The notes beneath the pieces are model-generated. The model ran no database searches. It worked only from the letters and a program-made list of their open reading frames with translations, and had not been told where the DNA came from. The position numbers were made by a program, and so were the translations under genes. Shown in pieces: positions 42,054 to 64,000 of a DNA stretch of 64,000 nt. Origin of the DNA: Erysipelotrichia bacterium (GTDB lineage: Bacteria > Bacillota_I > Bacilli_A > RFN20 > CAG-826). The stretch spans positions 22,408 through 86,407 of the forward strand of contig JAAYJX010000107.1 of NCBI GenBank assembly GCA_012522695.1, given 5' to 3'. Position 1 is the first letter of the stretch. Every line of letters starts with the position of its first letter.

Positions 42054-42480
42054 TTTCTAGTAAAATTTCTTCTAAACCTTCCCAACCTAAAATTGCACAT
42101 TTTATCCGAGCAGGTTGCTTATACGTATTCATAAAAACGATTGCCTCATCAAGAACGCTTTCATCAAATGGTAATTCGTAAATCATTTGCTCATATTGCT
42201 TAATAATATAAAGGGCTTCATCTTTTGTTTTATTAATAACTAAATCACACATAATATCAGTTGAGGCTGTCGAAATTGTACAAGCGACACCATCAAATAA
42301 ACAATCAGTAATAATATTTTTTTCGACAAATAAGTAAATATTAATATCATCAATACAATTAACTGAATTTAAATGTCTAGTTAAATAACCATCTTTTTTT
42401 GGTTTAGATTTATGCCGAGGATTTTGATAATGATCAAGAATAATCGCCCGCATTAAATTAGTATTAAGTGAAATAGGCAT
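42037..42480 (-). CDS. sufU: SUF system SufU
   Basis: [26 protein letters not shown]. Confidence 0.92.
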
Positions 42481-44418: not shown

Positions 44419-45235
44419 CTCTTGCTATATCTTTCGCTGCACAAAAACCAAGAGAGATTTCATTCATTGATGTATCTTCTTTTTCAATCTCAATACCTAA
44501 TTCAGTCTTAATCCATTCATAACCTGTTTCATCAATTTTTTTAATAATTTCTTGTCCGCCTTCAACGACGACTTTTCCATTTACCATAACAATCGCTTTA
44601 TTTAAATGAATCATATTATAAAGACGTGCATAATGAGAAACAATTAAAAATCCTCGACCTTTTGCTTGTTCTTCTTTAATAACTTCTGCGACAATATTCA
44701 TTGCATCAATATCAAGACCAGAATCGATTTCATCAAGCATGACAAACTTTGGATTAAGTAACGTCATTTGTAAAATTTCATTGCGCTTTTTTTCGCCACC
44801 TGAAAAACCTTCGTTTAAAAAACGATTAGCAAGTTCAAACGGCATTTTCATTTTTTGATAGCTTTGGTTCAAAAGGGTATAAAATTCAAATAAAGATAAA
44901 GGTTTTTCGCGTCGAACATTTAAGGCCGCTCTTAAAAAATCAGCATTAACGACACCACTAACTTCACTTGGATATTGCATTCCTAAAAATAAACCTGCTT
45001 TCGCTCTTTGATCAACACTCATCGCGAGTAAATTTTCTTCGTTTAAATAAACTTCTCCTTTAGTAATTTGATAACGAGGATTACCCATTAGAGCTTGTAA
45101 AAGAGTTGATTTGCCATGGCCATTTGGACCTAAAAAAGCAACAGTTTCGTTACTTTTAAGTGTTAAAGTAACGTTCTTAAGAATTTCTTTATTTTCAACA
45201 CTGACGTGTAAATTACTAATTTTTAAGATATCCAT
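44408..45235 (-). CDS. sufC: Fe-S assembly ATPase SufC
   Basis: GPNGHGKST, NEGFSGGEKKRNE, LDEIDSGLD. Confidence 0.96.
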   Translation of the reverse strand: MDILKISNLHVSVENKEILKNVTLTLKSNETVAFLGPNGHGKSTLLQALMGNPRYQITKGEVYLNEENLLAMSVDQRAKAGLFLGMQYPSEVSGVVNADFLRAALNVRREKPLSLFEFYTLLNQSYQKMKMPFELANRFLNEGFSGGEKKRNEILQMTLLNPKFVMLDEIDSGLDIDAMNIVAEVIKEEQAKGRGFLIVSHYARLYNMIHLNKAIVMVNGKVVVEGGQEIIKKIDETGYEWIKTELGIEIEKEDTSMNEISLGFCAAKDIARDDK

Positions 45236-47361: not shown

Positions 47362-49030
47362 GAAAAAAGGATTACTTTTTACACTTGCTTTAGCATCATC
47401 ATTTGTTTTAGCTTCGTGTAATGAAATTTCAGCTCTTCCCTTATTTTATGAAGGACCATTAGTCGTTAATCAAGATGGTGAAAAAACTGATGTTTATCAA
47501 AACTTAGTTGGTCTTTTATACGATTCATTAATTGATTCAAGCGATACTGCTAAAAAAGTTTTAAATGAAATGATGTATGTTATTGCAGTTGATCAATTTG
47601 GTGATTATCACGAAGTTAAAGAACTTCTTGAAACATCAGACGCAAATAGTGAAAAAGTTAGAGAGTTTATTGATGCTCACGCAAATGTTTATCAACGTGA
47701 TAGCGATGAAGAAAGTGACAAAAAAGCTAACGAATTTGCTCGTTTAGTCCACTTTGGTGAGGTTATGGATTATCGGATTAAAGAAGTTTTCTATAACGCT
47801 GCAACTGGTGGATCATATTCATATCGTTCACGATTTGATGAAGAAAAATACGCCGTTAGTTTAGCAAAAGATTTATACGATATCGAAGGTGTTTTCGAAC
47901 CAGGTGTTAATTGGCACGAAGATGTTTTAATCGATCCAAGTGTTAAAGTCGAAAATATTGGTAACTACGTTCATTTAGATCGTTATGATGATTATATTGA
48001 TCGCGGTGTTTTACCAAACCTTTATCGTGAACGTTTAGTCGAACAGTTTTTACTTGATAACAACTATTCAACTTTAGGTCGTACATATGCCCGTAAAGTT
48101 GAGTACATTAAAATTAGCAAAAATGATAATTACCCAAGTGCGGCTAAATCTTTAATTAATGCTTTTGTTGATAAATATATTTTAGATCCAAACGCAACTG
48201 GTGATGTTGATTTAGAAATTTTATCAAACGCCTGGCGCGGAATCGATTTAGACGTCGAAGCCGTTGCCTTACTTGATGAAGCATTTAGCAAAAAGGATGT
48301 TACTGATGCTGATGTTTTAAGTTATTTAGGTGATGCGACCGAATATTATCCGGAAACACAATTTGGCGCTATCGTCAAAGACTATTTAAAAATTACTGAT
48401 GATCGCTTTACGAATGATAAGAGTGTTGAAAGTGACTTTACTTCTAGTAACTCTTATAGCAAACAAGTTGGTTTAAAAATTAAAGCCGACACCCTTCGTT
48501 TAGAAGATTATACAAACGATGGTTGGTTCGTTAAAAGCGGCGGATTAAGCGAACTTCCCGAAGCAATTCGTTCACGTTTATTTAATATTAACGTTGCTAA
48601 CCAAGTCGATTTTCTTGTTGAAGAAGATCAAACTACACACGAATATGAATCTGGTAATTATGTTCGTAATATCCAAGGTAACTATTATTTAACACCAACG
48701 ATTTCCGAACAAGGAACAGACGTTCGCAAAGATAACTTTGTTATTTATGATATTTCAAGTTCAACATATTACATTATTAAAGTTCTTGAAGCTGTCTCAA
48801 CGAGTAAACTTTCTTATCTTAGTGATAATAACTATCAACACCTTCGCACAGATGAAAGTAAAACTTTTATCGAAGAAGTTGCCAAAGAAGTTACTCACGT
48901 TTTAAGTGCAAAAGACTCTTATATTAATAATGCTAACGAACATTATATTGGCCTTTATAACTTCAAATATCACGATACGACAATTTATGATTACTTTGTC
49001 GAAAACTTCCCAGATTTATTTGAAGAGTAA
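47351..49030 (+). CDS. Large acidic lipoprotein, possibly a degenerate parvulin paralog
   Basis: AAGGAGGT RBS before ATG 47351; lipobox LASC; weak parvulin-like strings (DGWF...LPE, YYIIKV). Confidence 0.65.
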   Translation: MTNKKKGLLFTLALASSFVLASCNEISALPLFYEGPLVVNQDGEKTDVYQNLVGLLYDSLIDSSDTAKKVLNEMMYVIAVDQFGDYHEVKELLETSDANSEKVREFIDAHANVYQRDSDEESDKKANEFARLVHFGEVMDYRIKEVFYNAATGGSYSYRSRFDEEKYAVSLAKDLYDIEGVFEPGVNWHEDVLIDPSVKVENIGNYVHLDRYDDYIDRGVLPNLYRERLVEQFLLDNNYSTLGRTYARKVEYIKISKNDNYPSAAKSLINAFVDKYILDPNATGDVDLEILSNAWRGIDLDVEAVALLDEAFSKKDVTDADVLSYLGDATEYYPETQFGAIVKDYLKITDDRFTNDKSVESDFTSSNSYSKQVGLKIKADTLRLEDYTNDGWFVKSGGLSELPEAIRSRLFNINVANQVDFLVEEDQTTHEYESGNYVRNIQGNYYLTPTISEQGTDVRKDNFVIYDISSSTYYIIKVLEAVSTSKLSYLSDNNYQHLRTDESKTFIEEVAKEVTHVLSAKDSYINNANEHYIGLYNFKYHDTTIYDYFVENFPDLFEE

Positions 49031-49567: not shown

Positions 49568-52063
49568 TTATTTTTTCTGATAATTATTTTTTAAAAATTC
49601 TAACGCGTCACTTTCATTTAAAGGACGTGATAAATAATAACCTTGAGCATAATCACAATTGTATGTTTTTAAATATTCTAAATGTGTTTCGTTTTCAACG
49701 CCTTCACCAACAACAAGAAAACCAAGTTTTTGACCAAGCGAGATAATGTCTTCAGTAATCGCTTTATTAATTTCAATTAATTCAATACCTTGTAAAAAAG
49801 CTTTATCAATTTTTAAAGCGTTGATTTCTAAAGAAATGAGACGATGAAGTGAAGAAAAGCCCGTGCCAAAGTCGTCAATTGCCACACGAATACCTTTTGA
49901 CGTTAATTTTTTTAATAATTGGTTAATACCAAAATAAGACGTTGTAAATGAAACTTCAGTTAATTCAAGCCAAATAGAACGTGGATTAACACCAATTGAT
50001 TCAATAAGAGCTAAAAATTTATTAACAAATTGGCGATCAAGTAATTGTTGAAAAGAAACATTAATCGACATCGACATATGATCATAGCCTAAATCATGGA
50101 CTGATTTTAAGAAAGTCAAAGCTAAACGGTTAATTTTATCACCGTAAATAATCATTAACTTATTCCTTTCTAATAGGGGAATAAATTCTAAAGGAGGGAT
50201 AAGACCTAACTTTTCGCTTTTAAAGCGGGCTAGGGCTTCAAAACCACTTATTTCGCCACGTTTAACATTAAAGATTGGTTGATATTGTAAATATAGTTGT
50301 TCATTATCAATTTGTACTGAAGCATCAACTAATTCTTTTAAAATTTGTTTTTCGCGTTCAATTTTTAAAGCAAGACGATCATCAAAATAACTAATCTCAA
50401 TTAATTTATCATCACTAGCTCTTTCTTGCTCAGTCGTTAAAAGAACGTTTTTAAGAATCGTTTCAAGTTGATTTGGCTTAGTATTTGGAGGAATATGTAA
50501 AACACCAACCCGGCACGTCACGCGTTCACTCCATAACAATGGTTCTAAAACTTTAACGACCTTTAAATAAAACTGATGGATTTCTTCTTCACTATCATAA
50601 TTTTTAATATAAAAACTTAAACGTGTTTCATGAGTAAGATATAGTTTACAATTATCATTTTCTAAAACTTTAAGTTTATTACTAATTTTCTTCATTAAAT
50701 CTCTTATATAGTGATAACCATGACTACTCGTTAATTGTTGAATTGAATTTAAGTTTAATAAGAAAAATGTTTTTTTCGATTTTTTATCATAAGTTAAATC
50801 ATACGTCATAAGTGTTTCTAAATAACGACGATTATGTAAACCCGTCCATTCATCAAATTCACTTCTATGTTTAATTTCTGCCTCATATTTTTTAATTTCG
50901 TTAATATCAATAATGATACCTTCTATGGCAATTGTTTCTTTATCACTATTAATGATCGGTTCACCAATTTCTAAGACCCATTTTTTCTCCTTATTTTTTG
51001 TAATAATCGGATATTGAAAACGGTATGTTGTTTGGTTTTTAACAGCTTTAAGTTGTAAATGGTAAATTTCACTTAAATATTCAGGGGCGATTAAATCGAT
51101 AAATTTTAAATCACGATTATCAATAAAAGCTTCAGGTTCATAACCAGTTAATTCTCTTGAACCTTTGGAAACAAACACTTTCGTAAAATCTTTATCAATG
51201 CGACTACGATAAGCTAAACCTGGTAGATGCGATAACAAAACGTCTTTGCTTCTTTCGCTTTCAAGAAAAGAAAGTTCAAATGATTTACGAATGCTCGTAT
51301 CACGAATAATCGCAAAATAAGTAAAAATTTCATCATCGGGAATATCGACTTTAATAACGAATAAATGCGTATAAACAACATCACCATTAGGACGGATAAA
51401 ACGTTTATCTAGATCATATCGATCAATTTTGCCTTTGATAAAATCGTTAAAGTATTTTAAATCTTTTTCTAAATCTTCTGGATGAGTATATTTTCGCCAG
51501 TCAATTTCGGTATGAAGGTCTTCTTCGATTGGCACGCCTAAAATATCGCGAAAAGCTTTATTAGCTCGAAATGATTGTAAGCGACCACCGCCTCTACGGA
51601 AAAACCTTGTAATGGAAATACCAAAAGGCGCGTGATTAAAAAGAGCAACAAAAATTTCACGCATATCCGATGATCTTTTTGAAGCGATAACATATTCTTG
51701 ATCTTTTTCAATTGAGCGAACGGCAAAATTTAAAGCATCACCATTAATTGGTGTCGTTAAATATTCAAATGTTTGTAGTTCTTGTGATTCTAAATTGTTT
51801 TTAATTGTTTCTTCTTTGCCAAGTAGAATAACACGAATATCTTTTATTTTTTTATCAAATTTTAAATGAGCTAAAAGTTGGTAACCTAATAAATCAGGAG
51901 CGTCTAAATCTAAAAATAAAAGGGGCGAACTTTCAATTTTAGCAAAATAAGCTAGTGCTTTTTGAATATTCGAACTATAAAAAATTTTATAATTGTTTAA
52001 AGCTAGGCTAATCGTTTTGTAATGTTCGTCTTCTTTTGAGAAAACAATCGCATGTTTTGTCAT
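49568..52063 (-). CDS. REC-like/PAS/PAS/degenerate GGDEF/EAL c-di-GMP phosphodiesterase
   Basis: LFLDL..P..GY receiver-like region; PAS (THPEDL); DEWTGLHNRR followed by HETRL in place of GGDEF; FEALAR, IDDFGTGFSS, KID, EGVE, QGYY. Confidence 0.88.
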   Translation of the reverse strand: MTKHAIVFSKEDEHYKTISLALNNYKIFYSSNIQKALAYFAKIESSPLLFLDLDAPDLLGYQLLAHLKFDKKIKDIRVILLGKEETIKNNLESQELQTFEYLTTPINGDALNFAVRSIEKDQEYVIASKRSSDMREIFVALFNHAPFGISITRFFRRGGGRLQSFRANKAFRDILGVPIEEDLHTEIDWRKYTHPEDLEKDLKYFNDFIKGKIDRYDLDKRFIRPNGDVVYTHLFVIKVDIPDDEIFTYFAIIRDTSIRKSFELSFLESERSKDVLLSHLPGLAYRSRIDKDFTKVFVSKGSRELTGYEPEAFIDNRDLKFIDLIAPEYLSEIYHLQLKAVKNQTTYRFQYPIITKNKEKKWVLEIGEPIINSDKETIAIEGIIIDINEIKKYEAEIKHRSEFDEWTGLHNRRYLETLMTYDLTYDKKSKKTFFLLNLNSIQQLTSSHGYHYIRDLMKKISNKLKVLENDNCKLYLTHETRLSFYIKNYDSEEEIHQFYLKVVKVLEPLLWSERVTCRVGVLHIPPNTKPNQLETILKNVLLTTEQERASDDKLIEISYFDDRLALKIEREKQILKELVDASVQIDNEQLYLQYQPIFNVKRGEISGFEALARFKSEKLGLIPPLEFIPLLERNKLMIIYGDKINRLALTFLKSVHDLGYDHMSMSINVSFQQLLDRQFVNKFLALIESIGVNPRSIWLELTEVSFTTSYFGINQLLKKLTSKGIRVAIDDFGTGFSSLHRLISLEINALKIDKAFLQGIELIEINKAITEDIISLGQKLGFLVVGEGVENETHLEYLKTYNCDYAQGYYLSRPLNESDALEFLKNNYQKK

Positions 52064-52194: not shown

Positions 52195-52920
52195 TTAATC
52201 AAAAGAGTGAACTAATTCTTCTAAAAGCGTCTCAATTAAGCTACCAATATGAGGCTGAGCTTCTAAACCAATACGTAGGGCAGATATTAGCTGATTATCT
52301 TTGCCAACTTCGTAAGTAACGGCTTTAAGTAAAAGCCAAGGAACGTCATGAACATAACATGCCGTAATAACGCCACCAGATTCTGTATCAAGGGCGATTT
52401 TATTTTCAATGTGCGAAAAGTTTTTCTTAATTAATTCATTCGCAACTTTTAAATTCGTATGAAAAGTATTCGTTGAAACAAGTGGTCCACGACCAATATT
52501 TAAGTTTTCTGTCCGTGAGTTAAGTGTTTGAATTAAACGAATGTAATCATCTTCACTTGAATAAAAAACAGGTAAGTCTTTAATTTGTCCATATTTAGTA
52601 TTACCTAAAGCTTCTAAGTTCATATCACCTAAATGAACACGTTCAGCAATAAATAAATCACCTTGATGAAGGTTAGGACTAATTGAAGTAACCGCACCAA
52701 CAGAAATAACAATATAAGGTTTATACTTACTAATCATAAAACTTGTCACAATTGCGGAAGTAATATTTGAATAACCTGTATGGGCCAAACAAACATCTTT
52801 ACCAGCAAAAGAACCAACATAATAAGGATGTTTCATCGCGATTTTGTTTTCTTCGCTAATTTTTAGACGAGATTTAAAATATAAAATATCGTCTTCGGTT
52901 GTGCCAATAATTAAAATCAT
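52195..52920 (-). CDS. MTA/SAH nucleosidase-like (PNP_UDP_1) protein, divergent
   Basis: ILIIG.., TG..ITSA, ISVGAV, GDLFIA, DTESGGV..ACY; several catalytic positions altered. Confidence 0.75.
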   Translation of the reverse strand: MILIIGTTEDDILYFKSRLKISEENKIAMKHPYYVGSFAGKDVCLAHTGYSNITSAIVTSFMISKYKPYIVISVGAVTSISPNLHQGDLFIAERVHLGDMNLEALGNTKYGQIKDLPVFYSSEDDYIRLIQTLNSRTENLNIGRGPLVSTNTFHTNLKVANELIKKNFSHIENKIALDTESGGVITACYVHDVPWLLLKAVTYEVGKDNQLISALRIGLEAQPHIGSLIETLLEELVHSFD

Positions 52921-54479
52921 TAATTACCACCTCTTCCTTTTTCAAAACGATTATTTTCTAAAAAGTTCATATAATTTTCTGGTCTAAGTGGTTCACTATA
53001 ATAAAACCCTTGAATACAATTTGCTCCCATTGATTGAAGAAGACGGATTTGTTCATATTCTTGAACACCTTCAATTACGACATATGCTTCTAAAATATGG
53101 GCAATTTTAATAATTTCACGGACTAAACCGCGTGATTTTTCATCAATTTCTAAATCACTTAAGAAAGCACGATCAATTTTAATAATGTCAAAAGGAATAC
53201 GTTTAATATAACTAAGTGAAGAGAAGCCTGTGCCAAAGTCGTCAATTGCTACTTTAATATTTAAAGCTTTAATTTTTTTGACAACCGCTAACAAATATAA
53301 AACGTCATATGGTGAAGGCGATTCAACGATTTCTACTTCTAATAACATCGGATTAATTTTATATTTTTTAATTGTTTCTTCAATATAAGGAACAACATCA
53401 CTACTAAAAATCATCCGTTTGGATAAGTTAACTGAAATAGGTAAAAGTCTTTTGCCGTGATCTCGCCAATGAGCTAAACGCTGACAAACAAGATCAAAAA
53501 CGTATTTATCAATTTCAATAATTAAATCAGATTGTTCGGCTAAAGAAATAAAAGCCGCTGGTGAAATTACACCACGCTCAGGATGAATCCAACGAAGTAG
53601 GGCTTCACTTGAAACAAAACGTTTAAGTTTTAAGTCGTATTTTGGTTGAAAGAAAACTTCAAATTCTTTTTTCTTTAAACCTTCTTCAATATCACGAGCT
53701 AAACCAACGTTACGTTCGCTTTTTTTAAACATTGAATCATTAAAAATAAAAATACCGCCGCGATCTGTATTAAGACGACCAAAATCACTTGCAATTAAAG
53801 CTGTTTGAAATAAACTTTCAGCCGAAGAGGTTTCTTTATTACGAATTGATAAACCATAGTGAGGATTAAAATCAATATTAACTTTTTCTTCACTTAAAAG
53901 ATGGTTAATATGTTCACTAAGTTTTTCTAAAGATTGTTGCATTTTCTTTTCGTTATATTTTGGAATAAAAAGTAAGAAGTTATCTGAATAATCATATCCA
54001 TAAAGTAATTTGGGATATTGTTTTTTTAATTCATCAATTGCTAAAAAAACCATACTAATAACTTTTGATTCTTTTTCATAACCATAACGTAAGAAAACTT
54101 CTTTTTTAAATTTAAACGTTGAAAAAGCAATTGCGACTGCTTCTTCATATTCTTTCCGACGGAAAAATTTATTAATTTGTAAAATTAAATCTCTTTCATC
54201 TAAAATATTTTCCGCTAATGGAAATAAGTTAGTATTTAAAACACGTTTAACAGATACTTGTTGCGAACGAGAGTAATTAATTAAGGCAAAAACTAAAAAG
54301 GCAATGCTTGTCAAAGTTAAAATAACAATTGCAAGTATTTTGTAGGCTAAATTACCATCAATGACTATAAAAGAGTCAAATAGCCCAGCGCTAACAATAA
54401 TATTTACAATAAAAAAGATAATAAAGCCTAAAAAATATAAGCTATATCGTAATGGATAATTAGGATTCTTATTTTTCAT
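52920..54479 (-). CDS. Membrane-anchored degenerate-GGDEF/EAL phosphodiesterase
   Basis: Two N-terminal TMs; YSDNF at the GGDEF position; SEALLRW, IDDFGTGFSSL, IKID, EGV, IQGFY. Confidence 0.88.
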   Translation of the reverse strand: MKNKNPNYPLRYSLYFLGFIIFFIVNIIVSAGLFDSFIVIDGNLAYKILAIVILTLTSIAFLVFALINYSRSQQVSVKRVLNTNLFPLAENILDERDLILQINKFFRRKEYEEAVAIAFSTFKFKKEVFLRYGYEKESKVISMVFLAIDELKKQYPKLLYGYDYSDNFLLFIPKYNEKKMQQSLEKLSEHINHLLSEEKVNIDFNPHYGLSIRNKETSSAESLFQTALIASDFGRLNTDRGGIFIFNDSMFKKSERNVGLARDIEEGLKKKEFEVFFQPKYDLKLKRFVSSEALLRWIHPERGVISPAAFISLAEQSDLIIEIDKYVFDLVCQRLAHWRDHGKRLLPISVNLSKRMIFSSDVVPYIEETIKKYKINPMLLEVEIVESPSPYDVLYLLAVVKKIKALNIKVAIDDFGTGFSSLSYIKRIPFDIIKIDRAFLSDLEIDEKSRGLVREIIKIAHILEAYVVIEGVQEYEQIRLLQSMGANCIQGFYYSEPLRPENYMNFLENNRFEKGRGGN

Positions 54480-55251
54480 CTTCATCTCTCCTTTCTTCGC
54501 TTGAAGACCGCAGTTTTTCTTTTTCTTTTTCAATTAAAAGTTTGAGTTTTTCTTGCTGCTTAATTTTTTCAAATTCATCTAAGCCTTCAAAATCAACTGA
54601 AACTTTTTCTGTTTCTTCTTTGCGCTCTTTAACATTTTTAGAAATATCAAAAAGCGAGCTAATAAAAACGTATAAAAGAGGAACAAGACCAACGATAATA
54701 ATCGTAAAAGGATTGCGCGTAAATTTAACGAAAAGTCCTAAAGCTTTAGAGTTTTTAATCCAAACTCCTAAGACGTCTTCTTCTTTAATCGTGTCAATTC
54801 CTTTACCCGTGCTTTGATCGCACACACCATTAGGAAATTGAGAACAAGTTTCGGCATTTTTATTATCACCAAATGTTTTAAAAGTAAATTTACCATCATT
54901 TTCAATTTTTTCAATAACACGGTGAGTAATAATTAAGCCGTCACTTCGACGGAAATAAGTAATAATATCGCCATCCATTGCATCCTCACTACTAGGTCCT
55001 TTAATTTGATTAGCGGGGACGCGTTTAATAATAATACCAACATCAATCGGTAAAACTGGCTCCATCGAATCAGTTAAAACTGTCAGCATTTGATAATTAC
55101 CAAATCGTTGCACACCATGGTTACTTCTCGCCGTAATTAAACCAAAGACTTGAAAAAAGAGTAAAAGACCAGCAAGCGAACCTAAAACAATCGTTGTAAT
55201 TCTATTTACAAGTTTCTTTTTTGGTAACTTAACTTTTTCTTTCTTATTCAT
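54469..55251 (-). CDS. sipW: Signal peptidase I, SipW/ER-type (S26B)
   Basis: VLTDSMEP (catalytic Ser), GDIITY, ITHRV (His instead of Lys), TFGDN; N- and C-terminal TMs. Confidence 0.88.
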   Translation of the reverse strand: MNKKEKVKLPKKKLVNRITTIVLGSLAGLLLFFQVFGLITARSNHGVQRFGNYQMLTVLTDSMEPVLPIDVGIIIKRVPANQIKGPSSEDAMDGDIITYFRRSDGLIITHRVIEKIENDGKFTFKTFGDNKNAETCSQFPNGVCDQSTGKGIDTIKEEDVLGVWIKNSKALGLFVKFTRNPFTIIIVGLVPLLYVFISSLFDISKNVKERKEETEKVSVDFEGLDEFEKIKQQEKLKLLIEKEKEKLRSSSEERRDEDEK

Positions 55252-56647
55252 CTTCTTTCCTTCTCATTTTAGCAACATTAATAACTTGTTCGCGCGCTTT
55301 TGCTAAAAGGGCTTCTTCTTCTAATCGTAGTTTTTCTAATCTTTCTTTTTCTTTTTTTGCTAAAATAGCGTCTTGTTTACGTTTAGCAAGAAGTAATTTA
55401 CGTTGACGTTCTTTTTCTTTCTTTTCAAGAGCTTTAAGTGCGGCAAGTTTTTTTGCCTCTTCGCGTTTTTCTAAAGCAAGTTGACGTTCTTTAGCTCTTT
55501 CTTCAAGACGAAGTTGTCGACGTTTTTCAGCCGCTTCAGCCCGTTTAATTTTTGCTTCAATTTGGGCAAGTGTTTCTTTTTTAACATCAACGCCGAAGGT
55601 TACGCTTTTACCAATAATTTTATCGTCAGTTAAATCAACATCAAGACGAACTTTTTTAAAGCGAGGTTTATAAAAGTATTGTTTCTTTTTATCACTTGGC
55701 ATCGTATGGTCACTTCTAAGTGTTAAATAAGAACTTAACATTAATAAATGTAAATCATCTAAATAATCTTCTTTAAATTCAATATCGTTTTGGCTAAAGC
55801 GATATTCAATACCTAAGACGTCATAACGTGTAATAAAAAGCCAGAGACGATACGCTGCTTGATATTCATAATTAAGACGCATTATATTTGTTTGTTGGAC
55901 CGGATCACTAACTGGTGCGACTTTACGCATTTCAAGCATAAAGCGCGAAGTTGTTAAGTATGTAATCCGTTTACGAATATGAAGAAGACGGTCGAGTAAA
56001 TCAGCATTAGCGTGTCTTTTCCCATCATCATCACTAGGAACAACAATCCGCATCTTAGTTTCAAATTCATATGATACTTCGTCGATTTTCATTTCTGAAG
56101 TTAATTTAACAATATCACTATGCCGTGTATCACTATGTTCAGATATATATTTATATCTAAGTTCAATAAAAGCTTGAAGACGACGAACAAGCGTCATAAT
56201 AAAACGGTTTTCATATATTTTTAATTCATCATCCATAAACATATTTAAAACTCGTTTAGGTTCGATTGTTCCATCACTACCAACTGAGCGGATATTTTGT
56301 GTATTTTGTGACATATGTTCAATTGAACGTTGGGTAATCTTTTTCGCCTTTTCAACACCGACAACTTCGGCTGTTTCTTTAATAAAACGATGTGGATCAT
56401 TAACAATTGCTTCTAAAGAAGGAAGCGCTCTTTCAATTTCTAAAATAAAATCAGGTGCATAAGTTTTAACTTCACGACGCGACACACCGCCATAAGTATT
56501 TTTAGAAGCAGCAAAAATATTTAAAAGTTCATGATATTCTTCATCACTACTTGCTAAACGTTTTAAGCGTGAAAAATGTTTTTGTTTTAAATCTTTAATA
56601 ATTTCGCTAGGAGTTAATACGGGAGCGTCTTTTTTGGTTTTTGCCAT
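55244..56647 (-). CDS. DUF2357 (McrC N-terminal-like) protein with a long charged coiled-coil tail
   Basis: PKRVL...IYENRFIMTL...TNIMRLNYEYQAAYRLW; lies directly after the McrB-like gene; E/K/R-rich C-terminus. Confidence 0.7.
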   Translation of the reverse strand: MAKTKKDAPVLTPSEIIKDLKQKHFSRLKRLASSDEEYHELLNIFAASKNTYGGVSRREVKTYAPDFILEIERALPSLEAIVNDPHRFIKETAEVVGVEKAKKITQRSIEHMSQNTQNIRSVGSDGTIEPKRVLNMFMDDELKIYENRFIMTLVRRLQAFIELRYKYISEHSDTRHSDIVKLTSEMKIDEVSYEFETKMRIVVPSDDDGKRHANADLLDRLLHIRKRITYLTTSRFMLEMRKVAPVSDPVQQTNIMRLNYEYQAAYRLWLFITRYDVLGIEYRFSQNDIEFKEDYLDDLHLLMLSSYLTLRSDHTMPSDKKKQYFYKPRFKKVRLDVDLTDDKIIGKSVTFGVDVKKETLAQIEAKIKRAEAAEKRRQLRLEERAKERQLALEKREEAKKLAALKALEKKEKERQRKLLLAKRKQDAILAKKEKERLEKLRLEEEALLAKAREQVINVAKMRRKEDE

Positions 56648-56662
56648 GACTATCCTCCTTTA

Positions 56663-58183
56663 TTAACCTATTTTTAAATAATCTGAAATAATTCTTTGTG
56701 ATTGCCAAAAAACACCTTTACCAAATAATTTATCAAGTTCACTCGAAAGTTCTTTTAATTCATCGTGCATAAACGCTAAGTTAAGCGAAGTAAATTTCTT
56801 TAAAACTTTAGAAGCAAAAATAAAATCAAGTGCTTCGTTTTCTGTACCCCCGCAAGCAATATAGTTCGAAGTAAAAAGACGAAGTTGTCTTAAAATTCGA
56901 TTACCAAAAGCAATCCGAAAACGATCAGCAACAAGTTTATCTAAACGATCAAATTTTGTTAATGCTTCTTTACTAATTGGGTAATTTGTTTGAGCGTTAG
57001 CAAAAAGTTTTAAAAAATCAGCTGAAGAAATTGAAACACCTTCCGTATATTCAACTGAACATGCTTCAATTTTTTCATTTAAAGTAATACTAATTGCTCG
57101 ATCATAAACTTTATCAGTAATTGTAAAAGTTGAGTCATCATTATTTGCTGTACCGACAAACCAAAGGTTTTGGGAAATAAGTAATTTACCATTTTCTAAT
57201 TGTTTAGGATTAATATTATCGGCTGTTCTTGTAATTTGAACTTTCCATTCATCAACCGAAGGCATTTCCATAATTGAAAGAAAGTCAGCAAAATAATATT
57301 CAATACGCGCGAGGTTCATTTCATCAAGAATAATCATATTCGGTTCTTGACGGTAACTTGCTTCATAAATAGCTTGTAAAAATTCGGTTTCATTAAACTT
57401 TTTCGTAAATTCATTAAAATAACCGAGCATTTCTGTTCTTTCTCGCCAAGATGGTTGAACAGAACATATTACCGCGTCATGTTTAAAAAACTTACCAATT
57501 GCATATGGTAAAGAAGTTTTACCAGTTCCCGAAATACCTTCTAAAATAATAAACTTCGATGTTCCTAACGCCGCAAACATCGTCCGAACTGTGCTCATAT
57601 CATAATATAAACAAAGCTGAGAGGCGGCAAAACGGAAAAAACGATCAACAATTTGTTCTAAAGAAATACCAATATCACTAGGTGGAACTTCGACAGTTGT
57701 ATCTAAATCAGCATATTTAATATCTATTGCTCCCAATTTTGGAAAGGCTTCTAAAACACGACGGTCACTACCTTCACCATCTTCACCTTCTGGTTGAAGA
57801 CCAAAAGAATCAGCTTTAAGTTTTAAAATTTCATTTTTTTCTTGAATTGCTAAAAATAATTCTTTATTTAATTTTTGCACTTCATCAAGAAGTTTTTCTT
57901 TTGAAACACGGCGATTATTAAAAACAATAAGTTTACGAACTAAAAAATACATAACGTAACCAAGTGAACCAATAAGGGCAAAGACTAAAATAATAAAAAC
58001 GACGAAGAGAATCCAGCCTCCTGCGCCGAATTGATGATTGTATGTTTGAAAAATTAATTTGTATTGACCAAAGTCACTACCAACTCCATACCAAGGTTCA
58101 GCAAAAATCGTTGCTAAAAAATGGCCTAAGTTTTTAAATAAAGCTTCAAACAACTCTCGAATGTAATTAAAAAATGCACTCAT
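56663..58183 (-). CDS. McrB-like AAA+ NTPase with N-terminal membrane anchor and coiled coil
   Basis: ILEGISGTGKTSL, VQPSW, LGYFN, LDEMNLARIEYYF, GTANNDDST (NxxD), KVYDRA; hydrophobic segment at about aa 55-80. Confidence 0.85.
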   Translation of the reverse strand: MSAFFNYIRELFEALFKNLGHFLATIFAEPWYGVGSDFGQYKLIFQTYNHQFGAGGWILFVVFIILVFALIGSLGYVMYFLVRKLIVFNNRRVSKEKLLDEVQKLNKELFLAIQEKNEILKLKADSFGLQPEGEDGEGSDRRVLEAFPKLGAIDIKYADLDTTVEVPPSDIGISLEQIVDRFFRFAASQLCLYYDMSTVRTMFAALGTSKFIILEGISGTGKTSLPYAIGKFFKHDAVICSVQPSWRERTEMLGYFNEFTKKFNETEFLQAIYEASYRQEPNMIILDEMNLARIEYYFADFLSIMEMPSVDEWKVQITRTADNINPKQLENGKLLISQNLWFVGTANNDDSTFTITDKVYDRAISITLNEKIEACSVEYTEGVSISSADFLKLFANAQTNYPISKEALTKFDRLDKLVADRFRIAFGNRILRQLRLFTSNYIACGGTENEALDFIFASKVLKKFTSLNLAFMHDELKELSSELDKLFGKGVFWQSQRIISDYLKIG

Positions 58184-58239: not shown

Positions 58240-59436
58240 TTAAATATCTTCTTCACTAGCAGCACTAAAGCGTAAGTTTGCACCGAACGATTTAGATCTA
58301 AGCTTGTTGCTAGAAAAGGCGTCCCAGCCTTCATACCAAATTTGAATTTTAATTTCGGCCACGCCTTTTGTGTCAGTTTTAGCAATTGGCTGACCATCAA
58401 TAAATTCGGCGCTATAAGTCGAAAAAATTGTATGTTCTTGAAGGGCTGGTTTGTAGTTAGGGTGATCAATTAATAAAGGGCGTACGCCTTGTAATGTCCC
58501 TGCTTGATGAAGCGAGGGGGTTATACTAGTTTCCAAAGGAATACTTTCAGTAGTAATATCCCCCCAATTACTTTCATCTAAAGGTTCTAAGAAATCGCCA
58601 TAAGCAATTTCATAACGTGAGCCAACTTCTGATTCATCATTTGGATTAATTTTAGATCCCTCAGGTGTGGCATCAAAAAATCCATCTTCATCTAAATCAA
58701 GGCGGCCCCCGACCGTTGTGTAATCATTTGTATCGCGACCCGGACTAATAATATCGCTCGTTAATTGGCTTTCAAAACCAAAACGCAAAACTTTCAGCAA
58801 TTCTTCGCTGCCATAAAATTCATTGTCCGCGCCGATGAAGATGCCATAATTAGCAACTCCACTTGATGATGTCTCACCATTAGTTGCTTTCGCTACCCGA
58901 AATAATATTGTAAAAGAAATAAATGTTTCTTTATCAGCGGGTATTATTTGTTTTGCTTGTGGACGAGAACTACCGGCAATTGGTTCTTGATATAAGTTAA
59001 TTGCATCACCTTTACTAAAACGTCGAGAAGTAATAGGCATAACTGCATTAGTAACCGAGAAACCATTGTGATAGATAATTTGTCGCAACGTTTGATTATT
59101 AACGACGTTGCTCGTCCAATAAACATAGCCGTCACCTTCAATTCCGTATTCATCTGGAACTAAAGAATATTTTTCTTGTTCATTAATCGAAATTGGTGTG
59201 GCGACACGAAAGCCTACTTCTCTTATGCCGACTTCTTCTTTATTTAAAAAGTCAAAGCCGATTGTCGTTGTGTTAGCTAAATATTCACCAATCGTATAGC
59301 CAAGATAAGAAATTAAGACAAACGCTGCTAAAACACTACTTGAAATCGAGGTTAAAATGATCGAACGTTTTTTACGCTTCTTATGATCATTAACTTCTTT
59401 TTCTATATTAATTTGACGCAAACGCAAGTCCTCCAC
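58240..59436 (-). CDS. Membrane-anchored secreted protein, divergent paralog of the SipW-substrate proteins
   Basis: KKRKKR plus TM; shares LRFG and IWYEGWD..SN motifs with the 60.4-63.8 kb paralogs. Start may be TTG 59421 after GGAGG. Confidence 0.7.
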   Translation of the reverse strand: MEDLRLRQINIEKEVNDHKKRKKRSIILTSISSSVLAAFVLISYLGYTIGEYLANTTTIGFDFLNKEEVGIREVGFRVATPISINEQEKYSLVPDEYGIEGDGYVYWTSNVVNNQTLRQIIYHNGFSVTNAVMPITSRRFSKGDAINLYQEPIAGSSRPQAKQIIPADKETFISFTILFRVAKATNGETSSSGVANYGIFIGADNEFYGSEELLKVLRFGFESQLTSDIISPGRDTNDYTTVGGRLDLDEDGFFDATPEGSKINPNDESEVGSRYEIAYGDFLEPLDESNWGDITTESIPLETSITPSLHQAGTLQGVRPLLIDHPNYKPALQEHTIFSTYSAEFIDGQPIAKTDTKGVAEIKIQIWYEGWDAFSSNKLRSKSFGANLRFSAASEEDI

Positions 59437-59633: not shown

Positions 59634-59714
59634 CTTTCGGCAACTGGCTACCATCGTTTTGAAGGCCCTATAGTTTTGCGTCGCTAAATTTCTTTAGTTT
59701 TGCCTTTTTCGGTA
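59634..59714 (-). promoter_or_regulatory. c-di-GMP-I (GEMM) riboswitch
   Basis: Minus strand GGCAAAACTAAAGAAATTTAGCGACGCAAAACTATAGGGCCT...TAGCCAGTTGCC: GGCAAA, GAAA-capped P2, GACGCAAA junction, 3' TGCC. Confidence 0.9.
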
Positions 59715-59717
59715 TTG

Positions 59718-59746
59718 ATTATATAACAACTCAATAATCTTGTAAA
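59718..59746 (-). promoter_or_regulatory. SigA-like promoter for the riboswitch-led operon
   Basis: TTTACA (59741-59746), 17 nt spacer, TATAAT (59718-59723), immediately upstream of the aptamer. Confidence 0.65.
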
Positions 59747-59851: not shown

Positions 59852-59882
59852 AAGAAAAAACCACCTAGAGATGGCTTTTCTT
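59852..59882 (-). terminator. Probable terminator after the 59908-60267 gene
   Basis: Minus strand AAGAAAAGCCA-TCTCTAGG-TGGTTTTTTCTT. Confidence 0.55.
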
Positions 59883-59907: not shown

Positions 59908-60267
59908 TTATTTTTCTTTTTTAGCCGCTAATTCTTTTTCAAGTTCTTCACGTGCTTGACGACGCGCTTCTTCTAAAAGTTCTTCGTGCGATAAAGCCGC
60001 TACAGCGCCTTCTTTTTCCGTCATTAATGATTTAACAAGTAAGAAGACATTAAACAAGAATAGAATGATTAAAGGCAATACAATTAAAACAAAGAACCAA
60101 ACAGGATTCATTTGTAACCATTTAATAAACATATTAGATGATTCCCCTAACGTAGTTAAGGCAACAATTGAAATAGTAACGAGAACAACGGTAAGTACGA
60201 TCTGTGCGATAACTAAAACCAAATTCAGCCAGCTAGGCAATTTAATTTTTGTTTTTTCTTTATTCAT
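59908..60267 (-). CDS. Small two-TM membrane protein with C-terminal coiled coil
   Basis: Two hydrophobic helices and EELLEEARRQAREEL; resembles the non-catalytic parts of SipW. Confidence 0.75.
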   Translation of the reverse strand: MNKEKTKIKLPSWLNLVLVIAQIVLTVVLVTISIVALTTLGESSNMFIKWLQMNPVWFFVLIVLPLIILFLFNVFLLVKSLMTEKEGAVAALSHEELLEEARRQAREELEKELAAKKEK

Positions 60268-60406: not shown

Positions 60407-61300
60407 TTAAGCAATAACTGGTAATGCGTACATCTTAAGATCGATTTTAAAGACACCACCGATAGCAGCGTTAACTGCGTGTTCGTCTTCGCCTTCAATC
60501 CAAAAACGGAAAGTGACATCAACAGTTGGAGCAGCGGATGTAAGTGTAAGGAAGGGTTCATAATTGTCAGCAGCAGCTTCTGCTACAGTTGGGTAGTAAT
60601 CAAATGCAGCGCCTTCCACAACGTCAGTTAAAACTTCAGTGTCAAGATATTCTTTAACACCCCAAGCTTCATCTTGGTCATCACCAGTTTTGGTTAAATA
60701 ATTGTAAGTTGTTTCTGCTTCAGGTGAATAATGATAAAATGCAGCTCCACCTTTAATCGCGGCCATACGAACGGCTTTAACAGCAGCAACGTCTGCGGCA
60801 TCAGCGCTTGCAGCGGTAACTGCAGTGCCTGCGTCAAAATAAACGTTTAAATCATTTGTTGATTGTGCGCCTGAGCCACGAGCGATTGTTAATGTAAAGT
60901 CAATTAAATAACCATCGGCATCACCAGCAGCGGCTAATGTAATATCATCAATACGATCGGCAACTTGGCCTCCGCCATAGGTGTTGGCCTTCCAGACTGG
61001 TTTGTAAAAATCAATACCGTCGCCGGAAATGTCAGTAACCTTGTTACCGCCTGAAAGAACAACATTATTAACAGTTTTACCATCATTAACATAATCATTA
61101 GTTGTGGCAGTCATAGTGTTTAGGGATGAAACATAGTGAACACTTAAGTCATTATCTTGTGTTTCAACGGTTGCGCTACTATATGAGATAGATGCGCTAC
61201 GGACGGTTGTAAACCAAGCAAATGTTGAGCTGGTTGCAGCAATACCACTTAAAACAACGAGTCCCATAATTGTAAGTAATACTTTATTTTTCTTATTCAT
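60407..61300 (-). CDS. Secreted protein with SipW-type signal peptide (TasA/camelysin-like candidate)
   Basis: MNKKNK, hydrophobic stretch, STFAWF; acidic mature part rich in Thr/Val/Ala; FRFWIEGED. Confidence 0.8.
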   Translation of the reverse strand: MNKKNKVLLTIMGLVVLSGIAATSSTFAWFTTVRSASISYSSATVETQDNDLSVHYVSSLNTMTATTNDYVNDGKTVNNVVLSGGNKVTDISGDGIDFYKPVWKANTYGGGQVADRIDDITLAAAGDADGYLIDFTLTIARGSGAQSTNDLNVYFDAGTAVTAASADAADVAAVKAVRMAAIKGGAAFYHYSPEAETTYNYLTKTGDDQDEAWGVKEYLDTEVLTDVVEGAAFDYYPTVAEAAADNYEPFLTLTSAAPTVDVTFRFWIEGEDEHAVNAAIGGVFKIDLKMYALPVIA

Positions 61301-61336: not shown

Positions 61337-62227
61337 TTATAAGTTTACGGGTAATCCGTAAAGTTGTAATTCGATGTCGAATAATCCGCCAATGGCGTCA
61401 TTATCACAATGAACATCTTCACCTTCGAGCCATGCACGGAAGGTAACATCAACTGAAGCTCCTTTTGCCACACTAGCAATTGCAGTTGTAGCACCATCAG
61501 CAGTAGTCACATCAGTGTATTCAACAAACGCATTGTAATAAGGTCCGGCGTGGACAGCGGTTGTATACCCGTCTACACTATAAAGGTCTTCACCAGCGTC
61601 TTCGACAATGTGCTTATGTCCACCAGCTTCTGCTTCAGGTGAATAAATTAAGACGACAGCATCAGCTGCGCTAATAACAGCTAAGCGTGCAGCTTTAACA
61701 GCGGCAGCATTTTTAGCTTCTTGAGCTAATTCTTCTGGTGTTGCAGTACCCCCAGCGTATTCAACTTCTTTAGCAATAATTTTTGTGTCTGGACCAAGAT
61801 ATACTTTCATATCATCATCACCAATATCGTCAAGACTAATCGTGATCGTAAAGTCAACGTAATAACCATCAGCGCTTGTTGCACCCACGGTTGGAATTTC
61901 ATTAGCGACACGAGCAGATGGTTTGTCAAGTAGTGAATTCCAAACAGGTTTGTAAAAAACAAGACCATCACTTGAGACGTCTGTAATATCATTAATGCCA
62001 TCTAAAATGATTTCGTTGGCACTGCCAGTATCAGTCATACCAGAGTTTAATGAAGATTTAAAAGCAATATCTAAATTACCTTCTTTAGTAACGACTTTCG
62101 CGCTGGAATAATGTAGGGAAGCTGTTCGCGCAGTATAAAACCAAGCAAACGTTGAACTAATAGCAGCAATTCCGCTTAAAAAAGCTAAGCCAATTGTTGC
62201 TAATAAAATTTTGTTTTTCTTATTCAT
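61337..62227 (-). CDS. Secreted protein with SipW-type signal peptide (paralog)
   Basis: MNKKNK...STFAWF; TDVSSDG, FYKPVW, ADGYYVDFT, FRAWLEGED. Confidence 0.8.
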   Translation of the reverse strand: MNKKNKILLATIGLAFLSGIAAISSTFAWFYTARTASLHYSSAKVVTKEGNLDIAFKSSLNSGMTDTGSANEIILDGINDITDVSSDGLVFYKPVWNSLLDKPSARVANEIPTVGATSADGYYVDFTITISLDDIGDDDMKVYLGPDTKIIAKEVEYAGGTATPEELAQEAKNAAAVKAARLAVISAADAVVLIYSPEAEAGGHKHIVEDAGEDLYSVDGYTTAVHAGPYYNAFVEYTDVTTADGATTAIASVAKGASVDVTFRAWLEGEDVHCDNDAIGGLFDIELQLYGLPVNL

Positions 62228-62368
62228 GTAGAAAATCCTCCAATAGATTTCTCCTTTGTTGTTAAGGAGTTGTGAGGTCCAAATTGTTAATGGGACAATG
62301 GCCTCAAAGCGGGCAATTCGCTTCTAGTATCCATCAACGAGGGAGGTCAAATAAATACTAGCACCATT

Positions 62369-62398
62369 ATTATAGTATGTTTTGTAACTAAAATGCAA
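62369..62398 (-). promoter_or_regulatory. SigA-like promoter for the 62227/61300 gene pair
   Basis: TTGCAT (62393-62398), 18 nt spacer, TATAAT (62369-62374), just upstream of a structured leader. Confidence 0.5.
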
Positions 62399-62688
62399 GT
62401 ATTATGTTGTTACGAAGTAACAAGAAATTAAATTTTTAACATTTTTAAAAGTTTTTTGAAAAAAATTCGCTTTATTTTTATAAATTTAGATTTTTTAAGT
62501 GAATAAGTGACTTTGAAAAATGTGTGATTTTTTTAGTTTTTGTTTCTTTTTAAAAAACCATTATTTTTGTCGTAAAAAATATTTTTTTGCCTTGTGATGT
62601 TTTTTATAATAAAAATTGAGTTTTTTTGAGACTATTTTAGCCTTTTTGAAAAAACTAAATTTTAAAAATTATAAAAGCTGTTTTGGAT

Positions 62689-62736
62689 AAAAAAACTAGG
62701 GCTTTTTATAAGTAAATTGTTTGCCCTAGTTATTTT
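62689..62736 (-). terminator. Terminator after fibre-like paralog (copy 2)
   Basis: Same AAAAAAACTAGGG...GCCCTAGTTATTTT arms as at 60326-60376. Confidence 0.7.
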
Positions 62737-62755
62737 GTTAGTTTATAAGAATTAA

Positions 62756-63829
62756 TTAAATGACTGACAATGCATACATTCTTAGGTCAATACTAAAGAC
62801 ACCACCAATTGCGGCGTTAACTGCATCATCGTCTTCGCCTTCAACCCAAAAGCGGAAAGTAATATGAGCAGTTGGATCAGCTTCAGTAAGTGTAAGAAGG
62901 GGTTTATAATTTGCGTCTTCAGCTTCGACAACAGTTGAAAAATATTTAAACTCAGAACCTTTTTCATTTATTGTCGGTGTTGAAGGGTCATCTTGAATAC
63001 CTTCAACAGCATTAATCACATCTTCAGGATCAGCGGCATCACCTAAAATTGATGTATTAGAATAACCTAAAATAGTATAAGTAGTTCCACCACTGTCTTC
63101 ACTTAAATAATTATAAAGAGGCTCCGCGTGTGGCGCGTAATAGAAAATAGGCTTTAAGGGGCTTATATCGTCTATTACGGGATTATCAGGGTCAGTAATG
63201 TCATAAGTAACATCTGTTTCAATTACGGCCATTCTTACGGCTTCAACGACTTTATTATTTCGATCTTGTTGTTCAATTTGAGCATTACTTGGATTTTGAT
63301 TTTCGCCTATAACATCAATTGGCGAAATAAGTGTCCCACGATCAAAATAAATATTTAAATCATTTGGCGAATAAAGGTTAACACCACGAGCTATTTCTAA
63401 AGTAAAATCAATTAAATATCCATCAGCAGATTTAGTAAGATTGCCTTTATTATCTTTGTAAGATAAATCTATTTCATTAATATAGTCAGCTATACTTGCA
63501 TCGCCTGGATCATAAGCACTCCAAACAGGTTTGTAAAAATTAATGCCATCGCCTGAAATATCAGTAACTTTGTTAAGACCAGAAAGGACAACATTATTAG
63601 AACTTTTTCCTTCATTAACAGAAAGATTTGTTGTTGCGGTCACTGAATTAAGTGATGATATATATTTAACACTTAGGTCGTTATTTTTTGTTTCAACAGT
63701 TGCGCTTGTAAAAGAAATTATCGCACTACGAACGGTAGTAAACCAAGCAAAGGTTGAACCAGTCGCCGCCGCACCACTTAAAACAACAAGGCCAATTGTT
63801 GTTAGTAATAATTTATTTTTCTTATTCAT
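62756..63829 (-). CDS. Secreted protein with SipW-type signal peptide (paralog with acidic insertions)
   Basis: MNKKNK...STFAWFTTVRSA; NKVTDISGDG, FYKPVW, FRFWVEGED. Confidence 0.8.
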   Translation of the reverse strand: MNKKNKLLLTTIGLVVLSGAAATGSTFAWFTTVRSAIISFTSATVETKNNDLSVKYISSLNSVTATTNLSVNEGKSSNNVVLSGLNKVTDISGDGINFYKPVWSAYDPGDASIADYINEIDLSYKDNKGNLTKSADGYLIDFTLEIARGVNLYSPNDLNIYFDRGTLISPIDVIGENQNPSNAQIEQQDRNNKVVEAVRMAVIETDVTYDITDPDNPVIDDISPLKPIFYYAPHAEPLYNYLSEDSGGTTYTILGYSNTSILGDAADPEDVINAVEGIQDDPSTPTINEKGSEFKYFSTVVEAEDANYKPLLTLTEADPTAHITFRFWVEGEDDDAVNAAIGGVFSIDLRMYALSVI

Positions 63830-63852: not shown

Positions 63853-64000
63853 TTATTGATCGTAATGTTTACGAATTTCGATTGTTTCAATTGTAAAAGT
63901 CAGACCTTGATAAACATTAGAGTTACCTAATGTTGATTTTTCATAAAAAACATCACCATTATCTTTTGAGGCAAATTTATAAAAAGTTGAGGGGTCGCCA
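63853..64000 (-). CDS. 3' end of an upstream gene (partial), possibly another secreted subunit
   Basis: Open frame from the window edge: GDPSTFYKF...LGNSNVYQGLTFTIETIEIRKHYDQ*, stop at 63853-63855. Confidence 0.6.
   Translation of the reverse strand, partial: GDPSTFYKFASKDNGDVFYEKSTLGNSNVYQGLTFTIETIEIRKHYDQ

Follow-up and report, generated by a model that had tools for sequence, protein, structure and literature searches.

A McrB-like NTPase with a predicted membrane anchor and an apparently nuclease-less McrC-like partner in a riboswitch-linked locus of predicted TasA-like fibre genes

What would a relative of McrB be doing at a bacterial membrane, among genes for secreted proteins? The question is raised by a gene on the reverse strand, at positions 56663..58183 of a 64,000-nucleotide stretch of DNA from an Erysipelotrichia bacterium (assembly GCA_012522695.1, contig JAAYJX010000107.1), referred to here as the window. 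The gene encodes a 506-amino-acid (aa) McrB-like nucleoside triphosphatase (NTPase), with exactly the coordinates and length given in an earlier, sequence-only reading of the same DNA. The fibre operon and riboswitch context points to a function in fibre building, and the likely task of the protein and its apparently nuclease-less partner is to help in fibre construction at the cell surface and not to cleave DNA. Our favoured answer, held with moderate confidence, is that they form a membrane motor, switched by cyclic di-GMP (c-di-GMP), in the service of a predicted TasA-like fibre on the cell surface, for its export or its assembly.

The NTPase domain (residues ∼170 to 506) carried all the McrB-clade motifs that had been assigned to it from the letters. 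Thus, Walker A (GISGTGKT, G216-T223; 57515..57538, reverse strand), Walker B (LDEMN, with D287/E288), the McrB signature N347-N348-D349-D350 (57134..57145, reverse strand) and the arginine motif D361-R362 were invariant in a 43-sequence alignment, save for I217. The signature read NNDD in 43/43 aligned homologs, and its spacing equalled that of NHDE/NTDE in CoCoNuT-like plasmid proteins. Its earlier description as NxxD held in the ungapped alignment to Escherichia coli McrB, although the form is N-x-D-(D/E), the type called NxD by Bell et al. (eLife 2024, PMC11090510). E. coli McrB was the sole significant sequence match among solved structures (phmmer E 6e-4; profile E 1e-4), and McrBC (6hz4) ranked first in a Foldseek search with the model of the protein, MCM and RavA scoring nearly as well. 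The Pfam family AAA_5 was matched, as anticipated, but only below cut-off (14.7 bits, E 0.031), like all other AAA matches.

A tree of 56 sequences, with RavA as its root, placed the protein among the N-x-D-(D/E) proteins, with E. coli McrB outside (support 0.88), and nearer to E. coli McrB than to RavA; since RavA was the root, the tree alone cannot exclude MoxR. Its deep nodes were weak (0.31 to 0.46), and we therefore draw no conclusion on the order in which the subtypes arose. MoxR ATPases of the RavA type are expected to have a VWA partner. Here the sequence matches were to McrB only and the partner carried DUF2357 in 77/77 loci. The grouping with McrB rather than MoxR proposed earlier is thus upheld by the phmmer and profile matches, the first Foldseek rank and the position in the tree. 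As for the substrate, the guanine of GTP is read by the N-linker of McrB (PMC7680126), and some McrB homologs also use ATP (preprint 10.64898/2026.08.31.748284); GTP rather than ATP is the likely, but not certain, substrate of the window protein.

Ahead of the NTPase domain, the AlphaFold2 model (pLDDT, the predicted local distance difference test, 78; pTM, the predicted template-modelling score, 0.65) showed helices at residues 2 to 25 and 34 to 49, followed by a single long helix at 54 to 126. Hydropathy, the model and family comparison agreed on a predicted transmembrane helix at residues ∼56 to 82 (57938..58018, reverse strand). The segment from 56 to 74 had a mean Kyte-Doolittle value of 2.82, and all 79 full-length members of the family, the window included, had a 19-residue stretch of at least 2.24 within their first 140 residues, with the NTPase part at 1.85 or below; the topology of the family was judged from hydropathy only. 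Lysines and arginines averaged 5.6 after the helix versus 0.85 before it, as expected for a cytoplasmic C terminus. From this charge bias and the McrB structures, a hexameric motor at the cytoplasmic membrane face is a reasonable inference.

No nucleic-acid-binding or modified-DNA reader family was matched in Pfam by the N terminus, residues 1 to 126 being helical with a membrane segment. This was in agreement with the proposal of the sequence-only reading that an amphipathic helix, a transmembrane helix and a coiled coil replace the DNA reader. The start of the protein was amphipathic (hydrophobic moment of 0.60 to 0.68 across the first nine windows) and the coiled coil was short (residues ∼98 to 123). 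The same reading's term "membrane anchor" fits the predicted helix but undersells what precedes it, because F5, P30, W31, Y41, F52, G56 and W57 were kept in 41 to 43 of 43 aligned homologs, and such conserved aromatic, glycine and proline positions mark residues 1 to 57 as a helical module and not a bare anchor. This module probably lies outside or on the membrane.

The partner is a 467-aa McrC-like protein (55244..56647, reverse strand), consisting of DUF2357 and a coiled-coil tail rich in K/E/R/Q/A, with no nuclease domain found. Its gene lay directly downstream of the McrB-like gene in 77/77 loci in which any gene follows (of the 80 loci fetched, 79 could be used; L034 was left out because the caller of open reading frames [ORFs] chose a frame on the opposite strand). 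The full-length partner had no Pfam match, whereas removal of the charged tail brought DUF2357 to 28.4 bits (cut-off, 23.3); 55 of 56 aligned members of the partner family matched it. Conservation dropped past residue ∼290, and the tail after DUF2357 (173 residues, 55% K/E/R/Q/A) was poorly conserved. Compared by profile, the partner aligned with the McrC-like protein of a plasmid CoCoNuT-like operon (99%, 198 columns), while it gave no real match with solved structures and 0.1% and no alignment with E. coli McrC, the catalytic Arg/Lys of the partner being left unassigned for this reason.

A nuclease family was found by Pfam in 0/61 partners (61 of the 67 complete ones), in a scan that also missed the nuclease of the comparator partners and is thus without a positive control; the composition and length of the tail are the stronger argument. 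A strict regular expression for the nuclease motif matched no partner, not even the comparators, and hence amounts to no test. PD...(E/D)xK motifs were visible by eye in the partners of soluble relatives. A lysine of the family at column 258 was present in 41 of 56 partners and is a leucine in the partner from the window. The host genome (88% complete) contained one McrB-like and one McrC-like gene; a PF04411 search of it was uninformative, with no match in any control genome. Taken from these comparisons, the partner is likely a McrC-like protein that is apparently nuclease-less. Two related loci (L039:4599-11594 and L044:9017-15760) encode McrC-like partners of more than 2200 aa with 13 to 14 Big_2 immunoglobulin-like repeats and no predicted membrane helix. 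Such repeats are odd for a presumably cytoplasmic protein; the partner in L074 has a different repeated domain.

The pair resembles E. coli McrBC in that Walker A and B, the signature Asn and Asp and the arginine align ungapped, and in the order McrB then McrC. It differs in that neither a methylcytosine reader nor a PD-(D/E)xK nuclease was found, the N terminus being helical and the partner ending in the charged tail, and a canonical McrBC restriction system was set aside as an identity for it. Canonical McrBC translocates DNA (PMC7680126), and with the ring placed at the membrane one could imagine that the fibre captures DNA or cells and that the McrB ring pulls DNA there, in uptake or transfer. 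We regard this as very improbable, since the reader and the nuclease, the parts that contact DNA, were not found, and no competence, relaxase or conjugation family was present among the scanned neighbour representatives.

Defence is another function to be weighed. A CoCoNuT-derived sensor or effector might be coexpressed with the fibre because the fibre is a phage receptor, its membrane hexamer triggering depolarisation, dormancy or fibre shedding upon infection. The NTPase part matched PDC-M26A, a defence candidate in PADLOC, at 139 bits; the partner aligned by profile with the plasmid CoCoNuT-like McrC already mentioned; and the distribution was patchy, with matches of any subtype in 96/151 genomes of the order (and in 86/399 of a wider sample at E 1e-30). 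Isolated defence-like neighbours were also observed, namely, PDDEXK_2 in L101, Schlafen and DUF4143 in L041, WYL in L040, Fic in L099 and AAA_21 in L098. However, no defence family recurred, and no HEPN or DNA methyltransferase family was detected in the 85 of 104 neighbour representatives scanned. Matches covering 80% of the McrB-like protein were absent from 72,556 plasmids, and 50,697 phage records yielded two partial ones. According to Bell et al. (PMC11090510), a nuclease-less CoCoNuT McrC always has an adjoining nuclease gene; no nuclease was found in the partner here, and the locus appears to be under c-di-GMP control (see below). Defence therefore seems to us improbable.

The likeness to CoCoNuT systems extends to the NxD NTPase, the DUF2357 partner and the coiled coils, whereas the window protein has a membrane anchor where CoCoNuT has RNA-binding domains. 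The tandem nuclease of CoCoNuT was not found either: the adjacent genes encode a peptidase, EAL proteins and secreted proteins, and no HEPN, helicase or nuclease recurs in related loci.

Closer still is a clade that Bell et al. (PMC11090510) named CoCoPALM in a single paragraph and deferred, in which a fusion of FtsB-like membrane and coiled-coil segments is linked to signal peptidases. Their supplementary file 1 gives the matches to FtsB (E 1.2 by HHpred) and to SipA (E 8e-8). The window shares with it an NxD-type McrB with membrane and coiled-coil helices, a coiled-coil McrC with DUF2357 and a neighbouring gene of the signal peptidase family, adjacent in the window and represented by a SipW-family gene in 44 of 45 well-flanked loci (a minimum of 2.5 kb of flank on the upstream side and of 4 kb on the downstream side). 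The McrB-like protein thus fits CoCoPALM by its features, the tree containing neither RHC33375.1 nor any labelled CoCoPALM sequence, and belongs to a kind that has been named but apparently not studied. Among the matches listed for the name, subscription papers lying outside the scope of the search, were only Bell et al., its preprint and unrelated papers, and within the same scope no paper was found that joins McrB to SipW/TasA fibres. Fibre subunits, a riboswitch and the loss of the nuclease are not named in the text and supplements of Bell et al. as available to us, whose Figure 3-figure supplement 1 may show more neighbours.

What differs from that description is the company that the NTPase keeps. 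The peptidase gene downstream of the partner (54469..55251, reverse strand) encodes, according to family scans and alignment, a SipW-like signal peptidase with two membrane helices, Ser62 and His110 and a charged C-terminal tail; it scored E 4e-18 with NF046067 and E 3e-12 with TIGR02228, both under cut-off. The Ser/His dyad of the SipW (ER-type) signal peptidases is known from Bacillus subtilis SipW. Ser62 and His110 were present in 99% of 106 aligned family members, as counted from alignment columns, regular expressions having under-counted. The peptidase is thus SipW-like, apparently active, and not the inactive SipA invoked by Bell et al. Streptococcus pyogenes SipA, a pilus chaperone (PDB 4N31), likewise has a signal peptidase fold encoded in a pilus locus but is without the catalytic residues (PMC4049620). 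Nor was any FtsB/DivIC family matched in the McrB-like protein at E 0.05 in scans of family libraries, and neither the SipA nor the FtsB label was adopted here.

Another gene (59908..60267, reverse strand) encodes a two-helix membrane protein of 119 aa which, by profile alignment, resembles a SipW paralogue without its peptidase domain. In other loci such a paralogue is encoded directly upstream of McrB, and the 119-aa family aligned with its second helix and tail (98%, 84 columns), part of this match being composition, and weakly with its first helix (55%). The 119-aa gene was present in 15/80 loci and the upstream paralogue in 38/80; none had both, and 27 had neither (window included in the counts). 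In our reading, the 119-aa protein is a SipW whose peptidase domain has been lost and whose remaining role is structural, and the mutual exclusion and the alignment together suggest such a role for the membrane helices and tail of SipW.

The substrates of the peptidase would be encoded nearby, all on the reverse strand. A 297-aa secreted protein (60407..61300) has a SipW-class signal peptide (STFA-WF) and a predicted beta-sandwich whose best fold match was the TasA fibre; paralogues of 296 aa (61337..62227) and 357 aa (62756..63829) have the same signal peptide, and the 3' end of a 275-aa gene with a SipW-class signal peptide (63853..64000) continues past the window end. Beyond it (G000:C57 87092-90384) lie 777-aa and 279-aa genes with SipW-class signal peptides, then a second c-di-GMP riboswitch. 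These six genes (297, 296, 357, 275, 777 and 279 aa) accounted for every ORF with the motif among the 1120 of the genome, a count that shows clustering and not family membership, since the motif was drawn from the same six. The 777-aa protein (L167:7093-9426), whose signal peptide is SipW-class-like, is a candidate tip adhesin. Between the 357-aa and 296-aa genes there is a 528-base gap (62228-62755) without a listed ORF of 80 aa, into which contigs from the RNA libraries of three runs extend, to ∼62341-62349.

T26, A28, W29 and F30 were invariant in 87 members of the 297-aa family. By profile comparison this family was linked to a paralogue of 398 aa, with a divergent N-terminal hydrophobic segment, which is encoded just upstream of the McrB-like gene (58240..59436, reverse strand; 95%, 245 columns), and to two other families recurring upstream (98%, 215 columns, and 92%, 54 columns), against 0.2% for a nucleosidase control. 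The model of the 297-aa protein (pLDDT 82, pTM 0.80) was compared with 48,161 representative chains, and the TasA fibre 8aur ranked first (Z 6.4, root mean square deviation [rmsd] 3.4, 139 residues aligned), followed by a Sulfolobus filament (7pnb; Z 5.9, rmsd 3.4, 138 aligned) and archaeal bundling pili (7ueg; Z 5.0, rmsd 4.7, 142 aligned); cannulae scored 4.8, and a glycosidase tied at 5.0. The fold match to TasA is modest, but it gains weight from the fact that the signal peptide had already led us to expect it. In the Atlas the nearest named family was PF12389 (camelysin/TasA), at 0.87 and 0.82, which are leads only. One neighbour protein, in locus L081, scored above the PF12389 cut-off. 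Residues 23 to 39 of the monomer model were poorly ordered and outside the aligned core, which is compatible with a donor strand and is no test of it. The upstream genes are predicted to encode TasA-like fibre subunits.

As in B. subtilis tapA-sipW-tasA and Clostridium perfringens sipW-bsaABC, the locus thus combines a dedicated SipW-like peptidase with several candidate substrates whose signal peptides look SipW-class, TasA being the best fold match. Those operons are described without an NTPase (PMC9674648, PMC11580942), whereas the McrBC-derived pair is a fixed member here. Secretion of BsaA depends in part on genes for type IV pili (PMC11580942). The host shows no sortase or transpeptidase, none having been found in its 88% complete genome in a search that detected its controls.

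Among the well-flanked loci, a subunit-family gene was found within a few genes in 43 of 45. The homologs of similar length number at least 8000, scores above 600 bits were reached in several complete genomes of the class (1.5-2.2 Mb), and the 80 fetched loci came mostly from uncultured Bacilli (Enteromonas, Anaeroplasma, Acholeplasmatales and Izemoplasmatales), with some from Clostridia.

A c-di-GMP-I riboswitch aptamer (59636..59714, reverse strand) scored 66.5 bits (gathering threshold, 35) and is followed by an operon encoding, in this order, the 398-aa subunit, the McrB-like and McrC-like proteins, the SipW-like peptidase, a membrane-bound EAL-domain protein (52920..54533; Pfam, hydropathy), a methylthioadenosine/S-adenosylhomocysteine (MTA/SAH) nucleosidase (52195..52920; TIGR01704 above cut-off) and, as the last gene of the run, a receiver-PAS-GGDEF(weak)-EAL protein (49568..52063; Pfam), all on the reverse strand. 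A sigma-70-type promoter-like site (TTTACA-17-TATAAT; 59718..59746, reverse strand) ends 4 bases before the aptamer. It was the best of 61 sites in the 15 kb scanned; the total number of such sites was at chance level, and the position is the argument. A terminator-like hairpin (59855..59880, reverse strand) closes the upstream subunit operon. The only other c-di-GMP-I aptamer of the genome (G000:C57:90304-90384) heads the subunit genes, so that both riboswitches are located at the McrB-like locus. Upstream of this second riboswitch a membrane protein is encoded in part, and where the sequence breaks off it looks like the beginning of a GGDEF domain.

An aptamer of this class was detected in 15/16 related loci (7/7 and 8/9), being absent from L043; in L079 it lay downstream, little upstream DNA being available there. 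Three tandem aptamers precede the operon in L095:6029-6377, and two do so in L075:6129-6314 and in L060:5991-6179. When the leader folds freely (z -2.7), the 3' half of the aptamer is paired with sequence further downstream, which precedes a U-rich stretch; this suggests an ON switch. RNA-library contigs (four runs, three studies), mostly identical in their letters, covered the riboswitch and the 398-aa and 297/296-aa genes, but the greater part of the genes for the McrB-like protein, its partner and SipW had no coverage; such contigs cannot rank genes or show transcription, and no expression claim is made from them.

The EAL and GGDEF genes lend themselves to an explanation in which the membrane McrB/McrC pair senses the state of the fibre or envelope and controls the membrane EAL protein, tuning c-di-GMP by feedback instead of acting mechanically on subunits. 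EAL/GGDEF-family genes were present in 38 of the 45 well-flanked loci, and the order SipW, membrane EAL, nucleosidase, PAS-GGDEF-EAL was fixed in the subgroup of the window; a PilZ gene follows SipW in L108, and partner tails vary from ∼170 to 1770 residues across loci, as those of a scaffold might. However, many loci have their EAL genes upstream of the riboswitch or none in the available flank, while SipW and the subunit genes stay adjacent, and no c-di-GMP-I riboswitch was found in eight loci of the other subtypes (those with 4 to 5 and 12 membrane helices). We consider this signalling role doubtful, on a par with defence. The nucleosidase gene sits between two EAL genes in the window and in 25/80 related loci.

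Other subtypes of membrane McrB were observed among the related loci. In the multi-helix subtype (L111:9326-11146, L112, L113, L115, L117, L118 and L130), the McrB protein has 600 to 625 aa and three to five membrane helices, with a three-helix SipW-family gene upstream and a McrC-like partner, which in L111 ends in a Cys-rich, zinc-ribbon-like tail; downstream, most of these loci encode an ABC ATPase, a membrane protein of 9 to 12 helices and an 830-aa one-helix protein. In the twin subtype (L119:7364-12489, L120, L121 and L122), one McrC-like gene lies between two membrane McrB genes, followed by genes for one-helix proteins of 600 to 1740 aa. In 3/4 loci the trimmed tree alignment shows no difference between the two NTPase domains, while the N termini do differ, which suggests gene conversion or a hetero-hexamer. 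In the 12-helix subtype (L123:7597-10272, L124 and L125), ∼12 membrane helices are fused to the McrB domain (885 to 895 aa); the partner in L123 ends in a zinc-ribbon-like tail, and no SipW-family gene was detected in the three loci.

Returning to the motor that serves fibre export or assembly, its working can be pictured as follows. The aptamers before both operons would act as ON switches, and the motor would work at high c-di-GMP. The SipW-like peptidase would cut before the conserved WF and free an N-terminal donor strand, which would complete the beta-sandwich of the next subunit, as in TasA. The McrC finger spans the McrB pore, and a rotation model likened to the F/V-ATPases has been put forward (PMC7680126); by analogy with these structures, the McrB-like hexamer, its pore holding the finger of the partner, would step round it during hydrolysis. 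The movement might then be relayed through the coiled coils to the membrane parts of the operon, the candidate receivers being the tails that SipW and the 119-aa protein extend into the cytoplasm, to feed, gate or release subunits.

Several points weigh against this reading. The linkage shows co-regulation and not physical coupling, and related loci are kin, not independent samples; two of them (L099 and L100) have no nearby subunit genes. The accessory proteins of B. subtilis TasA are described as SipW and TapA only (PMC9674648), and such fibres thus need no motor in that organism. The defence-candidate match of the NTPase part counts here too, as does the fact that the nearest plasmid relatives sit in CoCoNuT-like operons, and the nuclease scan of the partners had no positive control. 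The peptidase reached neither of its two curated cut-offs (65.7 bits against 190, and 46.9 against 51.85). Unrelated helix-plus-tail profiles reached 77% and 53% against the 119-aa family, reversed profiles giving 5 to 6%, and the mutual exclusion with the SipW paralogue follows lineage and may be one event. As for the subunits, TIGR04088 was matched by 6/87 members of the 297-aa family, weakly (best E 0.004), and PF12389 by none; the subunit profile found nothing in Pfam or among solved sequences, and the family of the L081 protein that passed the PF12389 cut-off gave no alignment with it (0.1%). At Z 6.4 the TasA fold match falls short of 8, a range in which the comparison tool warns that an arrangement may simply be common; Foldseek returned no match at E 0.001, its top entry being FimA. 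A complex prediction of McrB residues 1 to 160 with the partner and SipW scored 0.00, which is no answer and bears neither way.

A bolder and distinctly less probable version makes the motor a rotary one. The McrB ring, fixed in the membrane, would be the stator and the McrC finger, turning in its pore, the rotor. Through the long coiled coil of McrC, torque or pull would reach membrane subunits derived from SipW, and a TasA-type fibre could in this way be actively extended, retracted or spun under c-di-GMP control in apparently wall-less Bacilli. The 4-to-5-helix, twin-McrB and 12-helix subtypes would then represent one engine, adapted to different envelope machines.

The remaining genes observed near the operon were two adjacent lipoprotein-like genes on the forward strand (45466-49030), which converge on the operon end, the first with a PPIC-type peptidyl-prolyl isomerase domain (PrsA-like), and which could encode foldases for secreted proteins. 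An ordinary SUF iron-sulfur cluster operon adjoining mnmG/gidA lies at 40653-45235.

The gene set is common among Bacilli with small genomes, for the most part uncultured, that live in guts, rumen and digesters, and the kind to which it belongs, CoCoPALM, has a name for which the literature search returned no mechanism or experiment. The locus offers testable parts: an apparently active SipW, named substrates with a cleavage site, a riboswitch, and a motor with residues open to point mutation. TasA-type fibres have been described as self-assembling, and a dedicated motor would be new to the field. If the pair does serve the fibre, we would have a clear example in which the building or moving of a surface structure has been taken on by a motor from anti-phage systems; if, in addition, the rotary version were true, the fibre would belong to a class of donor-strand pili driven by a motor, and rotary motors in biology would have a further, new origin.

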